Shown here one piece after another: positions 2,304 through 9,916 of a stretch of DNA of 64,000 nucleotides. Each line of letters opens with the position of its first letter. Positions within the stretch are counted from its first letter, which is position 1. The position numbers were made by a program, and so were the translations under genes. Origin of the DNA: Escherichia coli (GTDB lineage: Bacteria > Pseudomonadota > Gammaproteobacteria > Enterobacterales > Enterobacteriaceae); the NCBI RefSeq assembly GCF_030013595.1, contig NZ_CP122768.1; one strand, given 5' to 3'. Below the pieces are notes generated by a model. The model did no database searches. It was not told the origin of the DNA and saw only the letters and a list, made by a program, of their open reading frames with translations.

Positions 2304-3593
2304 ATGAGCACCGCTTTGCTTGACGCCGTGGTGAAGAAAAACCGAGCGCGTATAATTCCGTTTATGTTGGCGCTGTATGTGCTGGCATTTCTCGACCGTT
2401 CGAATATTGGTTTTGCTAAACAGACCTACCAGATTGATACCGGGCTGAGTAATGAAGCTTATGCGCTGGGAGCAGGCATTTTCTTTGTGGTATACGCGTT
2501 TCTGGGGGTTCCGGCGAATCTTTTGATGCGCAAACTGGGGGCCAGAACCTGGATTGGTACGACAACACTGCTGTGGGGATTTCTTTCGGCAGCCATGGCA
2601 TGGGCCGATACTGAAGCGAAATTTCTGATCGTTCGTACTCTGCTTGGTGCTGCGGAGGCCGGGTTCTTCCCTGGTATGATTTATCTCACCTCGCAATGGT
2701 TTCCGCAGCGTAATCGCGCCAGCATTATGGGGTTGTTCTATATGGGCGCACCGCTGGCGTTAACACTGGGATCACCGCTTTCCGGCGCGCTGCTGGAGAT
2801 GCATGGATTTATGGGGCATCCCGGCTGGTTCTGGATGTTTGTGATTGAAGGATTGCTGGCAGTCGGCGCTGGGGTATTCACATTCTTTTGGCTTGATGAC
2901 ACACCGGAGCAGGCACGTTTTCTGAGTAAACAAGAAAAAACGTTGCTTATCAATCAACTGGCAAGTGAAGAACAACAGAAAGTGACTTCTCGATTGAGCG
3001 ATGCGCTGCGTAATGGCCGAGTCTGGCAACTGGCGATTATCTACCTGACCATTCAGGTGGCGGTTTACGGATTAATTTTCTTCCTGCCGACCCAGGTTGC
3101 TGCATTGCTGGGGACAAAAGTGGGCTTTACGGCGTCGGTGGTCACCGCCATTCCGTGGGTTGCGGCCTTGTTTGGGACCTGGCTTATTCCGCGCTATTCC
3201 GATAAAACCGGCGAACGGCGTAATGTCGCAGCGCTGACATTACTGGCGGCGGGCATTGGTATTGGTCTGTCCGGGCTGCTTTCTCCAGTACTGGCGATCG
3301 TAGCACTGTGTGTTGCAGCCATCGGGTTTATTGCCGTGCAGCCGGTGTTCTGGACGATGCCGACACAACTGCTTTCCGGTACGGCGCTGGCGGCGGGGAT
3401 TGGTTTTGTAAACCTGTTTGGTGCAGTGGGTGGGTTTATTGCCCCGATCCTGCGCGTGAAAGCAGAAACGTTGTTTGCCAGCGATGCGGCGGGATTACTG
3501 ACGCTGGCAGCGGTGGCGGTCATCGGTTCGCTGATTATTTTCACTCTGCGTGTAAATCGCACTGTTGCGCAGACCGACGTGGCACATCATTAA
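2304..3593 (+). CDS. rhmT: MFS transporter, putative L-rhamnonate transporter
   Basis: ORF 2265..3593. Start moved to ATG 2304, which is preceded by TAAGGAGC at 2291..2298. Multi-pass hydrophobic MFS-like protein of 429 aa. Confidence 0.85.
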
Positions 3594-3609
3594 TAGGTTA
3601 AGGAACACC

Positions 3610-4413
3610 ATGAACGCATTATTAAGCAATCCTTTTAAAGAACGTTTACGCAAGGGCGAAGTGCAAATTGGTCTGTGGTTAAGCTCGACTACTTCTTATA
3701 TGGCAGAAATTGCCGCCACTTCCGGTTATGACTGGTTACTGATTGACGGGGAGCACGCGCCAAACACCATTCAGGATCTTTATCACCAGCTACAGGCGGT
3801 AGCGCCCTATGCCAGCCAACCCGTGATCCGTCCGGTGGAAGGTAGTAAACCGCTGATTAAACAAGTCCTGGATATTGGCGCGCAAACTCTACTGATCCCG
3901 ATGGTCGATACTGCCGATCAGGCACGTCAGGTGGTGTCTGCCACGCGCTATCCTCCCTACGGTGAGCGTGGTGTCGGGGCCAGTGTGGCACGGGCTGCGC
4001 GCTGGGGACGCATTGAGAATTACATGGCGCAAGTCAACGATTCGCTTTGTCTGTTGGTGCAGGTGGAAAGTAAAACAGCACTGGATAACCTGGACGAAAT
4101 CCTCGACGTCGAAGGGATTGACGGCGTGTTTATTGGACCTGCGGATCTTTCTGCCTCGTTGGGCTACCCGGATAACGCCGGGCACCCGGAAGTGCAGCGA
4201 ATTATTGAAACCAGTATTCGGCGGATCCGTGCTGCGGGTAAAGCGGCTGGTTTTCTGGCTGTGGCTCCTGATATGGCGCAGCAATGCCTGGCGTGGGGAG
4301 CGAACTTTGTCGCTGTTGGCGTTGACACGATGCTCTACAGCGATGCCCTGGATCAACGACTGGCGATGTTTAAATCAGGCAAAAATGGGCCACGCATAAA
4401 AGGTAGTTATTGA
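3610..4413 (+). CDS. rhmA: 2-keto-3-deoxy-L-rhamnonate aldolase (HpcH/HpaI aldolase family)
   Basis: ORF 3565..4413. ATG at 3610 ([13 protein letters not shown]..) is preceded by AGGAACACC and gives 267 aa. Confidence 0.85.
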
Positions 4414-4419
4414 TATCAA

Positions 4420-4447
4420 AGGCCCATGGGGATCGGCTGTGGGCCTG
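4420..4447. terminator. hairpin between convergent rhmA and ypaA
   Basis: Inverted repeat AGGCCCA ... TGGGCCT immediately after the rhmA stop. Confidence 0.4.
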
Positions 4448-4453
4448 TGTTAA

Positions 4454-4675
4454 TTAGTGGTTATTCGCTGCCAGATCGGCTTCGCTTAGCTGGGTGGCCG
4501 CGAGCACCAGGTCACGATCAATGCCCTGTTCCAGCATGCGCAAGGCAATTTTAATGGCTTGTTCACGCATACCTTCCTGCAAACCTTCTAATTTACCCTC
4601 CTGCCAGCCTTCAAGCTTACCTTCCTGCCAGCCAATCTGATGCCCTTCCTGCCTCAGCCGTTCAGCAATAGTCAT
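4454..4675 (-). CDS. ypaA: small protein duplicating the Rpn C-terminal tail (YpaA / RpnS-like)
   Basis: 73-aa ORF ([31 protein letters not shown]..) about 85-90% identical at DNA level to the 3' end of rpnB. AAGGAGAG lies just upstream of the ATG at 4675. Confidence 0.6.
   Translation of the reverse strand: MTIAERLRQEGHQIGWQEGKLEGWQEGKLEGLQEGMREQAIKIALRMLEQGIDRDLVLAATQLSEADLAANNH
4572..4643. repeat. three 24-nt tandem units encoding G-W/L-Q-E-G-K/M-x-E octapeptides inside ypaA
   Basis: Period-24 repeat read directly from the sequence (ccttcctgccagcc...). Confidence 0.7.
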
Positions 4676-4687
4676 CAATCTCTCCTT

Positions 4688-5659
4688 TTAATGACAGTTC
4701 GGAATATCAGCATCAGTGAGTTGGGTTGTCGCCAGCACAATCTCACGTTCAAAGCCCTGCTCCAGCATGCGCAAGGCAATTTTAATGGCTTGTTCATGCA
4801 TGCCTTCCTGCAAACCTTCTAATTTCCCCTCCTGCCAACCTTCAATTTTACCTTCCTGCCAGCCTTCAATCTTACCTTCCTGCCAGCCAATTTGATGCCC
4901 TTCCTGCCGCAGCCGCTCAGCAATAGTCATCAATCTCTCCTTTTGTAGTGGTGAACGTTCGGCAATCTCCTGAATAAAACGGGTGAAACGGGAGGTATCG
5001 CCGCATTGCAGCAGATAATTAAACAGCGTTTGTAGCTGGCTGTCATTAGTGAAGCCTCTAACCAAAAGCGTGGTGATCCTGTCGACCATACCGATTAAAT
5101 CGCGGTCGCGAATATGCTTTTGAATCAGTTCAAGCAGAGCTATACGCCGATGTTGCATGATCTCATCGTCAGGTACGATGGTGATATCCACCAACGGAAA
5201 AGCTTCGGTGTACAACTGCCGGGCAAGTTGCGGATCGTCAAACTCATCCAGCCAGTTGAGTGAGTACGGGTAGGGCGAGGTTTCGCCATGATAAAACAGC
5301 AATGGCACCACCAGCGGAACTCTGTCATAGCCTTTATCCAGGTGACGCTGCATGGCGGCAGTGGCATAGCGCATTAGCCGAAAAGCCATATTCTTTTCTG
5401 CAGAGCTTTGATGTTCAATCACGCAGTAGATATAGCCTTCACTGTCGCTGGTTTCCACAGACCACAAAACATCCGAGTAGTAAGCGCGTAAACTTTTTTC
5501 AATAAAGCTGGTGGGTTCCAGGCGTAAAGTTTGCAGGTTGCAAAGCTTGCGCAGCGGCTCTGGTAGATGTATTTCCAGAAAATCCCGAGCGGTTTCGGGT
5601 GTGAACATAAAGGTTTTAAACACCGCATCATGCGGGGAGGAGGTTGTTGATTCGGTCAT
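4688..5659 (-). CDS. rpnB: Rpn-family (YhgA-like, PD-(D/E)XK) recombination-promoting nuclease
   Basis: 323-aa ORF with an N-terminal D..E-H-Q nuclease-like motif (YIYCVIEHQ) and a C-terminal WQEGKxEG repeat tail. An internal AAAAGGAGAG + ATG (MTIAERL..) near 4930 sits in frame with the tail. Confidence 0.8.
4801..4896. repeat. four 24-nt tandem units encoding the octapeptide repeat tail of RpnB
   Basis: Units at 4801..4824 (degenerate), 4825..4848, 4849..4872 and 4873..4896. Confidence 0.7.
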
Positions 5660-5805
5660 GGTTGTCCGTCACCTGATATTTATGATGACGCGACATTACG
5701 GTTATCCCAGGCCTTTGACATCTGCCAGTTTCAGCCTTTGCGAGACGTTTTCAGAGGAATTTTCACTGCGTTGCAACGCATACATTGGGCACGGAATCGT
5801 GTACG

Positions 5806-5838
5806 CAAAAATGCCCGGTAACAACATGCTTACCGGGC
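5806..5838 (-). terminator. rho-independent terminator after glpC
   Basis: On the minus strand: GCCCGGTAA-loop-TTACCGGGC followed by a T-run. Confidence 0.6.
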
Positions 5839-5851
5839 ATCAGAAAGGAGT

Positions 5852-9916
<4,065 letters not shown>

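Follow-up and report, generated by a model that had tools for sequence, protein, structure and literature searches.

The rpnE-ypaA locus of Escherichia coli: an Rpn nuclease-family gene with an internal start and a free-standing copy of its tail

Identity of the locus and its nuclease domain

The window analysed here is a 64,000-nucleotide stretch of Escherichia coli DNA (assembly GCF_030013595.1, contig NZ_CP122768.1). According to its list of open reading frames (ORFs), yfaU (3565..4413) and glpC (5852..7117) flank a minus-strand gene for a 323-aa protein, which is followed directly by a small ORF, ypaA. The features of the locus are compiled in Table 1.

Table 1. Features of the rpnE-ypaA locus in the window
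Feature	Position	Strand	Basis
GC-rich hairpin between the convergent genes yfaU and ypaA	4420..4446		Terminator scan
ypaA (= rpnE-Ss), 73 aa plus stop, ancestral "Y-type" C-terminus ending IDRDLVLAATQLSEADLAANNH	4454..4675	-	ORF list; rpnE equivalog match
ypaA repeat region, variable segment of 24 aa, shorter than the in-gene copy by two 4-aa units	4571..4633	-	TRF, period 24, 3 copies at 4562-4633
ypaA Shine-Dalgarno AAAAGGAGAG, marking the 5' limit of the duplication	4680..4689	-	Sequence
rpnE (yfaD), encoding the full-length RpnE-L of 323 aa; coordinates include the stop	4688..5659	-	ORF list; NF007418; RefSeq label
rpnE-S, in-frame internal ORF from M244, 80 aa, derived "E-type" C-terminus	4688..4930	-	Sequence; K-12 Ribo-RET and SPA tagging at the homologous start
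In-gene tail repeat region, GWQE/GKIE units, variable segment of 32 aa (own count)	4802..4888	-	TRF, period 24, 3.5 copies at 4803-4885
Internal Shine-Dalgarno AAAAGGAGAG, 4 nt 5' of the internal ATG	4935..4944	-	Sequence
YhgA-like/Transposase_31 domain, residues 8-209, with predicted PD-(D/E)XK core D11, D63, E82, Q84	5033..5638	-	Pfam PF04754, E 2.7e-87

The original prediction had named the larger gene rpnB (yfcI), and this name is wrong. The orthologous K-12 coding sequence, which likewise lies between glpC and yfaU, carries the RefSeq label rpnE. The 323-aa product scored 721 bits against the rpnE-type NCBIfam equivalog NF007418 (cutoff, 583), and its score of 415 bits against the RpnA equivalog model lay under the cutoff of 583. 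By definition, RpnE is YfaD and RpnB is YfcI (Kingston 2017), and the small gene downstream of rpnE has been described as ypaA/rpnESs (Zhong 2023). The rejection of rpnB was based on synteny, the RefSeq label, and these definitions; rpnE is the name to use. We are highly confident that the locus is the chromosomal rpnE (yfaD)-ypaA locus of E. coli, a published Rpn "gene-within-a-gene" case, and this confidence refers to the best explanation as a whole, with its reading of ypaA included. For this very locus, papers of 2019 and 2023 have already described the internal start of rpnE and how it relates to ypaA, as well as the Rpn toxin-antitoxin model.

The locus was matched in 5420 of 5426 complete E. 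coli genomes, with at least 99% identity over 1351 nt in only two of the 5420. The database labels for the locus are misleading, since rpnE is listed as "ISNCY family transposase" and ypaA as "pseudogene." The former is the product name in both NCBIfam and RefSeq, but we give almost no credence to an ISNCY-family transposase at this locus: rpnE keeps its position between glpC and yfaU in all 5420 matching genomes and in four other Escherichia species, and it adjoins glpC in Salmonella diarizonae; in addition, no terminal inverted repeats or target-site duplications were found, and a transposase function has been argued against (Zhong 2023). The setting is a conserved metabolic neighbourhood of rhm and glp genes, in which rpnE is a near-universal syntenic core gene, and it is no defence island.

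A PD-(D/E)XK-like N-terminal region of the Rpn/YhgA type had been proposed for the 323-aa ORF from its sequence, together with a search against models of the YhgA-like nuclease family. This search confirmed the assignment. The Pfam domain PF04754 was matched over model positions 1-202 of 203, and TIGR01784 gave 176 bits (cutoff, 52). RpnE is colinear with the RpnA model (1-256 on 1-256), and its residues D11, D63, E82, Q84, R94, and D165 have the same numbers as the functional residues of RpnA, which are known from mutational data (Kingston 2017). RpnE-L is a YhgA-like PD-(D/E)XK nuclease-family protein, and its predicted catalytic residues are intact.

The internal start and the free-standing tail

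Within rpnE, an in-frame ATG at 4930..4928 forms codon 244, and the strong start signal AAAAGGAGAG-N4-ATG gives an 80-aa tail protein, RpnE-S. This agrees with the original proposal that an internal Shine-Dalgarno (SD) sequence and ATG allow the tail to be made as a separate small protein, and translation has been seen at the homologous start in K-12. As reported previously, the internal start in rpnE gives a Ribo-RET peak in K-12, and its product, the likeness of which to YpaA was recognized, was given as 98% identical to YpaA (Meydan 2019). RpnE-S and YpaA/RpnESs were later detected by ribosome profiling and SPA tagging, and an internal transcription start site was found by dRNA-seq (Zhong 2023), so that all three products (RpnE-L, RpnE-S, and YpaA) have been detected in K-12. 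The internal SD was kept in 31 of 31 E. coli loci examined.

The ypaA ORF encodes 73 aa from the ATG at 4675, or 74 aa if read from an upstream TTG. Its SD is identical to the internal one of rpnE and overlaps the rpnE stop codon TAA (4690..4688). YpaA matched positions 244-308 of the rpnE equivalog model (E 2.3e-33). The two copies of the tail segment comprise 257 nt and 236 nt, and 203 of 233 ungapped columns were identical (87.1%; blastn E 7e-66), a match far beyond chance; the alignment contained one 24-nt and one 3-nt indel. A duplicate of about 230 bp of the 3' end, with about 85-90% identity, a 73-aa ORF, and the same SD and ATG, had been anticipated, and the alignment bears this out. 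Identity was uneven along the copies, amounting to 95.6% in the first 160 columns and 68% in the last 73. As a separate ORF with its own SD, directly downstream of rpnE and homologous to its tail, ypaA is an RpnSs as the term is defined.

Both tails contain 12/24-nt tandem units coding for G-W/L-Q-E and G-K-I/L-E (TRF), which begin at residue 15 in RpnE-S and YpaA alike. According to the literature, RpnS proteins are recognized by 4-aa repeats, the first of which lies 8-20 residues downstream of the initiating Met and the number of which differs from strain to strain. In 24 loci with both copies, these repeats spanned 8 to 40 aa in the gene and 8 to 32 aa in ypaA.

The AF2 model of YpaA consists of three helices (residues 3-49, 54-61, and 65-70; pLDDT 72). 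With this model, the top Foldseek match was PDB 7th0, the structure of RpnA-S (prob 1.00; TM 0.76 on the target), with an E value of only 0.05, and the same entry was matched by sequence (E 5.5e-4). These matches suggest, with moderate confidence, that YpaA adopts a three-helix fold like that of RpnA-S. Designer pentatricopeptide repeat proteins ranked first when the PDB was searched with the YpaA sequence, but they were dismissed as spurious, each stretch having an i-E above 100 and the scores being summed over repeats. Matches to FliH (NCBIfam) and Yae1_N (Pfam, E 3.5e-4) reflected the EG-K-LEG repeat composition and no homology; the latter was the sole Pfam match of YpaA, which did not match DUF4351 in Pfam.

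The hairpin between yfaU and ypaA was the only terminator-like element found downstream of rpnE/ypaA (minus-strand RNA, -12.1 kcal/mol; z, -2.1), and its U tract is weak. Terminator and sigma-70 scans found no terminator-like or promoter-like site in the interval between rpnE and ypaA. The sigma-70 scan of 4380-5900 yielded nothing, including for the published internal promoter in this allele, and no RNA family was matched by Rfam over 4000-6200. The duplication starts precisely at the SD, with no such site between the genes, so ypaA probably lacks a promoter of its own and would be expressed from transcripts of rpnE and of the internal rpnE-S.

Ancestry, selection, and repeat number

A single tail and no ypaA, with the order glpC-rpnE-yfaU, were found in Escherichia albertii, Escherichia whittamii, and Escherichia sp. 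E1V33 and MOD1-EC7003. In these outgroups, the last 69 nt were identical to the ypaA end at 57-67 of 69 positions vs 43-45 of 69 to the in-gene end. Because the single-copy outgroups match the ypaA end, it is ypaA that preserves the ancestral tail, and rpnE itself carries the derived copy. Other rpn paralogs and plasmids were searched for a source of the derived E-type 3' end and none was found, the apparent plasmid matches being mislabelled chromosomes or large chromosome-like records. Either in situ divergence or import may have given rise to the E-type end.

Of 5426 complete E. coli genomes, 3009 have the junction of an E-type end with ypaA (about 55% in the two-copy form), and 3133 have the E-type end itself, always at one place per genome. 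ypaA is missing from about 42-45% of E. coli genomes, and five of five single-copy alleles sampled carried a Y-type end. An explanation of the single-copy alleles as simple "fusion" deletions was rejected, because the outgroups show that single-copy Y-type is also the ancestral state; any given single-copy allele of E. coli could be either ancestral or secondary. When metagenomes were scanned with the 40-nt junction of the rpnE stop and ypaA start, only three loci were detected, two of them truncated or aberrant, and the sample was not enlarged by them.

Among the 24 two-copy loci, the ORF, SD, and ATG of ypaA were intact in every case. For the non-repeat core (53 codons, summed pairwise counts), pN/pS was 0.07 in ypaA and 0.13 in the in-gene tail of these loci. 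ypaA is thus under purifying selection, despite being called a pseudogene by PGAP.

Equal repeat lengths in the RpnE tail and YpaA were found in none of these 24 loci, which comprised 11 distinct combinations and which were picked by rank from BLAST tables and are phylogenetically non-independent. The in-gene and ypaA repeats measured 32 vs 24 aa in this window and 8 vs 12 aa in K-12. Random pairing would also give no matched pair with a P of about 0.39, so selection against matching was rejected. The counts show that repeat matching between YpaA and the resident RpnE tail is not maintained, and avoidance is not implied. A single experiment on RpnC showed that neutralisation by RpnC-S is lost with one extra 4-aa repeat, and repeat-number specificity was tested for RpnC only. 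This rule may not apply to RpnE, or to copies two repeats (8 aa) apart, like those in this window.

Possible roles of ypaA and comparison with known systems

Toxin-antitoxin behaviour has been demonstrated for RpnA, RpnB, RpnC, and RpnP2, which are paralogs other than RpnE, and antiphage activity has been demonstrated for the plasmid-borne RpnP2 only. When K-12 RpnE was overexpressed, no recombination, toxicity, or SOS phenotype was observed (Kingston 2017); the construct also carried the internal start and so also RpnE-S. RpnE is the sole K-12 paralog without demonstrated activity. The original prediction was right that intragenic products of rpn genes act as antitoxins; a toxin-antitoxin or antiphage function is overstated for this paralog, since that behaviour was demonstrated for other Rpn proteins and K-12 RpnE was inactive when overexpressed. 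Such a role for RpnE would be an extrapolation by analogy with other Rpn proteins. PADLOC v2 matched no Rpn model here, giving only a weak "putative invertase" (E 0.0019), and its library may predate Rpn.

By analogy with RpnA, RpnB, RpnC, and RpnP2, RpnE-S would bind the tail of RpnE-L, to which it is identical, by means of a long first helix that contains the repeats, and would keep the nuclease inactive. For ypaA, our preferred reading is that YpaA is an expressed and selected paralog of the antitoxin domain, which would pair mostly with itself and neutralise the RpnE-L of its own locus weakly at best. The 160-nt, 96%-identical 5' part of ypaA would serve as a recombination partner, repeatedly regenerating the single-copy alleles consisting of rpnE and a Y-type tail (about 42% of strains).

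Alternatively, YpaA might bind RpnE-L as RpnE-S does and so enlarge the antitoxin pool. The original prediction had raised such extra dosage, and we regard it as possible, although in its simple form it is somewhat disfavoured. YpaA shares with RpnE-S the SD, the start, the 96%-identical 5' part, and the fold family; it is expressed in K-12 and under purifying selection, and K-12 RpnE is nontoxic even when overexpressed in a ypaA+ strain. However, the repeat numbers of YpaA and the RpnE tail differ in all 24 two-copy loci, the region of the third helix is divergent (68% nucleotide identity), one extra repeat abolished cross-neutralisation in RpnC, and about 42% of E. coli strains and the other sampled Escherichia species manage without ypaA.

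It is improbable that ypaA is a non-functional remnant of the tandem duplication, as the PGAP description "pseudogene, missing N-terminus" would have it. In most genomes, RefSeq lists the product as an incomplete hypothetical protein, and the absence of ypaA from 42-45% of E. coli genomes and from the other sampled Escherichia species would fit a leftover, but the reading frame and start signals are intact in all 24 loci, the pN/pS is low, and the protein has been detected in K-12 (Zhong 2023). Moreover, a newer PGAP name for the product is "Rpn/YhgA-type helix-turn-helix domain-containing protein." Even less probable is the suggested decoy or anti-antitoxin, in which YpaA would heterodimerise with RpnE-S or a phage factor and tune the release of RpnE-L. 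RpnS proteins are reported to dimerise through helix 1, which is common to YpaA and RpnE-S, and the two are probably cotranscribed; yet the repeat mismatch that counts against binding to RpnE-L counts equally against pairing with RpnE-S.

A further reading, which we consider rather unlikely, is that ypaA is no redundant copy but preserves the ancestral antitoxin domain, and that the tail attached to the nuclease has escaped from it through changes in third helix and repeat number. Selection would then keep YpaA for some function unrelated to neutralisation of the resident RpnE-L. In that case, YpaA could provide immunity against ancestral-type RpnE alleles arriving by recombination. ypaA could also be a stored cassette that allows the tail type to be switched by a single crossover, which would explain the coexistence of two-copy and single-copy forms at about 55:45 across E. 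coli phylogroups. Together, the ancestral tail in ypaA, its purifying selection, and the absence of repeat matches in 24 loci offer a testable handle on the role of free-standing RpnSs copies, a question raised by Zhong 2023.

The closest known system is K-12 rpnE-ypaA (Kingston 2017; Meydan 2019; Zhong 2023), which is the same locus and shares the flanks, the SD and ATG at both starts, and the E-type and Y-type C-termini. The window carries an allelic variant of it, with 323 vs 299 aa for RpnE-L, 80 vs 56 aa for RpnE-S, and 73 vs 61 aa for YpaA; apart from a few substitutions, the alleles differ only in how many 4-aa repeats they contain. The experimentally characterised toxin-antitoxin pairs RpnA-L/RpnA-S (yhgA) and RpnB-L/RpnB-S (yfcI) share with RpnE the PF04754 domain, catalytic residues at identical numbering, an in-frame internal start, and a three-helix tail. 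They are other paralogs at other chromosomal loci and, unlike K-12 RpnE, are toxic and SOS inducing (Kingston 2017), and no free-standing copy follows either of them in K-12. In other species, stand-alone RpnS-like genes of the DUF4351 family (PF14261) encode Rpn-tail proteins separately, like YpaA, which differs in having no DUF4351 match in Pfam. Another rpn gene with a free-standing tail gene directly downstream represents the same phenomenon as rpnE-ypaA, of independent origin according to phylogeny (Zhong 2023).

Identity of the nuclease gene and its duplicated tail

The large ORF belongs to the Rpn nuclease family, as the original prediction had proposed. In Pfam, the whole PF04754 model (Transposase_31/YhgA-like) matched residues 8-209 (E = 2.7e-87), the Rpn family model TIGR01784 scored 176 bits (cutoff, 52), and the RpnA model aligned colinearly with the ORF (1-256 to 1-256). 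At RpnA residue numbers, the ORF has D11, D63, E82, Q84, R94, and D165, which are essential or modulatory in RpnA (Kingston et al.).

The gene had been named rpnB, which was rejected as an error. The NCBIfam equivalog used by RefSeq for rpnE scored 721 bits (cutoff, 583), and the RpnA equivalog scored 415 bits, below its cutoff. By definition, RpnB is YfcI and RpnE is YfaD (Kingston et al. 2017), and ypaA lies downstream of rpnE (Zhong et al. 2023, PMC10400941). When positions 4400-5750 were searched by megablast, 5420 of 5426 complete E. coli genomes gave a match, always chromosomal and named rpnE in RefSeq. The K-12 gene order is rhmD-yfaV-yfaU, a 198-nt "pseudogene," and rpnE-glpC-glpB. Thus, the locus is, with high confidence, rpnE-ypaA, producing the full-length RpnE-L, the small protein RpnE-S from the internal start, and YpaA (RpnE-Ss), the free-standing tail copy. 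The allele in the window is rare, with at least 99% identity over the 1351-nt query in 2 of the 5420 matching complete genomes; the closest one, from strain HCP5S3_I2 (pig faeces; 99.3%), still carries different repeat units in the in-gene tail.

Features of the rpnE-ypaA locus in the window
Feature	Position	Strand	Remark
yfaU/rhmA	3565..4413	+	flanking ORF
ypaA	ATG 4675, end 4454	-	73-aa ORF
second AAAAGGAGAG	4689..4680		overlaps rpnE stop
TAA stop of rpnE	4690..4688
internal ATG	4930..4928	-	codon 244, in frame
AAAAGGAGAG SD 5' of internal ATG	4944..4935		4-nt spacer
rpnE	5659 to 4688	-	323-aa ORF
glpC	5852..7117	-	flanking ORF

An in-frame SD plus ATG inside the nuclease gene, and an approximately 230-bp duplicate of its 3' end forming a small ORF with the same arrangement, had been described from the sequence. 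This description was accurate, because the in-gene tail and ypaA are identical at 203 of 233 ungapped positions (87.1%; 24-nt and 3-nt indels; blastn E = 7e-66), a duplication far beyond chance. The two AAAAGGAGAG sites are identical, and the internal ATG would yield an 80-aa protein. Counted from SD to stop, the tail segments span 257 nt (in gene) and 236 nt (ypaA), both with 12/24-nt tandem units. Identity is strongly polar: 95.6% in the first 160 aligned positions, comprising the SD, helix 1, the repeats, and helix 2, and 68% in the last 73, which encode the C-terminal helix.

This architecture and the general mechanism cited for it are already known, because earlier work covers exactly the rpnE-ypaA locus. 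By Ribo-RET, each of the five rpn genes gave a peak at an internal start in frame, and the product from the rpnE start shared 98% identity with ypaA, an independent gene (Meydan et al., bioRxiv 10.1101/520783). Zhong et al. (2023, PMC10400941) presented ribosome profiling of "rpnE-ypaA/rpnESs," detected RpnE-L, RpnE-S, and YpaA by SPA tag, reported a transcription start inside every rpn gene, described 4-aa repeat variation, and noted that the downstream tail copy can disappear through deletion or fusion.

Ancestry and variation of the two tails

Of 5426 complete genomes, 3009 carry the junction of the derived in-gene C terminus (E-type), TAA, SD, and the ypaA start. The E-type 3' end occurred in 3133 genomes, always at one place per genome, and the remaining ~42% carry one tail only. 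In all five single-copy alleles read (BL21, O157:H7, and three others), the C terminus fused to rpnE was that of ypaA (Y-type). Scanning one genome from each species for the pattern gave 13 loci, each with a single SD plus ATG. E. albertii, E. whittamii, and Escherichia sp. E1V33 and MOD1-EC7003 have the order glpC-rpnE-yfaU with a single tail, ypaA being absent; over the final 69 nt, these tails match the ypaA 3' end at 57-67 positions and the in-gene 3' end at 43-45. Because the outgroup tail ends are nearer to ypaA, ypaA preserves the ancestral tail and the nuclease-attached copy is derived. Neither other E. coli loci nor plasmids yielded a donor of the E-type end.

Several variant loci were seen. 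A single-copy allele of E. coli SCPM-O-B-8794 (NZ_JAATUR010000019.1) has a mosaic C terminus, E-type-like in its first half and Y-type at its end, a pattern that a crossover within the divergent 3' region would produce. E. coli WB61 (NZ_CP020025.1; locus 184-1292) has a different duplication, whose second copy extends past the SD on its upstream side by ~45 nt of rpnE coding sequence; the rpnE frame enters this copy out of frame, so that RpnE-L has 307 aa and a scrambled C terminus, and this is the only locus with equal repeat length in both small ORFs (12 aa). In metagenome contig SKEH01015850.1 (406-640), rpnE ends normally (E-type) and is followed by the usual SD+ATGACTATTGCTGA, after which the small ORF diverges into a different Rpn-tail-like protein (MTIAERLQEVGRRKGKREGQHAEALRIAQRMLDDGIARETVVKITGLTADEIAALAH); the flanking DNA, judged by appearance rather than alignment, does not resemble yfaU. 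Either the locus is a recombinant that took its tail from a different Rpn lineage or species, or the assembly is chimeric. In metagenome contig OEQM01000798.1, the rpnE tail frame runs past "…RMLEQGI" into unrelated sequence (140-aa ORF), which suggests an insertion, rearrangement, or assembly chimera at the third helix. E. coli QML220601 combines an RpnE-L of only 264 aa with a truncated yfaU pseudogene, and yfaU of E. coli RM14723 has an internal stop; the neighbouring gene is decaying in some strains. Six rpn genes of Citrobacter spp. share 58-67% identity with RpnE in the N-terminal 240 aa, and their tails, of 53-73 aa, differ by 4-aa units. The internal start is conserved well beyond Escherichia, because these genes retain the same GGAGAGATTRATGAC internal SD and start.

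Selection on ypaA and the role of its product

The ORF, SD, and ATG of ypaA were intact in 24 of 24 two-copy loci, and the summed pairwise pN/pS of the non-repeat core (53 codons) was 0.07 among 14 unique ypaA sequences and 0.13 among 15 unique sequences of the in-gene tail. ypaA is thus under purifying selection, and an annotation artefact probably explains why PGAP labels it a pseudogene ("hypothetical protein; incomplete; missing N-terminus"). This label was found in the window (4454-4687), in the comparison locus L001 (2555-2752), and in most RefSeq loci fetched; its coordinates reach the rpnE stop, so the SD and ATG are ignored. rpnE is annotated as "ISNCY family transposase," and some newer ypaA records read "Rpn/YhgA-type helix-turn-helix domain-containing protein."

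The duplicated segment starts exactly at the SD, and no promoter-like or terminator-like element was found between rpnE and ypaA, so ypaA would most likely be expressed from the transcripts of rpnE and the internal rpnE-S. The only hairpin lies after ypaA. In the AF2 model (13-sequence alignment; pLDDT, 72), YpaA forms a long helix (3-49) and two short helices, and its best PDB match is RpnA-S (7th0).

The length of the variable segment was never equal between the copies in the 24 two-copy loci (11 distinct combinations), for example, 32 aa in gene versus 24 aa in ypaA in the window and 8 versus 12 aa in K-12. Random pairing of the observed lengths gives zero matches with P of about 0.39, so the data show that matching is not maintained rather than avoided.

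These data argue against YpaA as a simple extra dose of cognate antitoxin: its repeat number does not match the resident tail, its third helix is divergent, and a one-repeat mismatch is enough to break specificity in RpnC, where RpnC-S with one added repeat no longer neutralises unless RpnC-L has the same extra repeat (PMC10400941). A decoy and a transposase were further readings named for the locus. A dead remnant is disfavoured by the purifying selection and by detection of the protein. The favoured reading is that YpaA would be a selected paralog, mainly self-associating, and that the highly similar 5' part of ypaA may mediate recombination interconverting two-copy and single-copy forms.

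RpnE stands apart from the other four K-12 paralogs: when overexpressed, it gave no increase in RecA-independent recombination and caused neither toxicity nor SOS induction (Kingston et al. 2017). Because that construct also held the internal start, RpnE-S was co-expressed. No antitoxin assay for RpnE-S or YpaA is reported in the literature, and no later literature on the function of RpnE or YpaA was found. As a core gene, the locus keeps its synteny in E. coli and in four further Escherichia species, adjoining glpC even in Salmonella diarizonae; it is not in a defence island, and PADLOC gave no relevant match. For these reasons, the "toxin-antitoxin or antiphage module" of the original prediction was extrapolated and is an analogy, not a demonstrated property. 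The family and architecture in that prediction stand.

What is modestly new here is that the free-standing copy is the ancestral one and that its repeat number is not kept in step with that of the resident tail. For RpnA, RpnB, RpnC, and plasmid RpnP2, the RpnS protein counters its matching RpnL, blocking toxicity, SOS induction, or DNA cleavage, and RpnP2 protects against phages (Zhong et al. 2023, PMC10400941). By analogy, and with moderate confidence, RpnE-S would pair with the identical tail of RpnE-L via the repeat-bearing first helix; with similar confidence, this pairing would keep the RpnE-L nuclease inactive.
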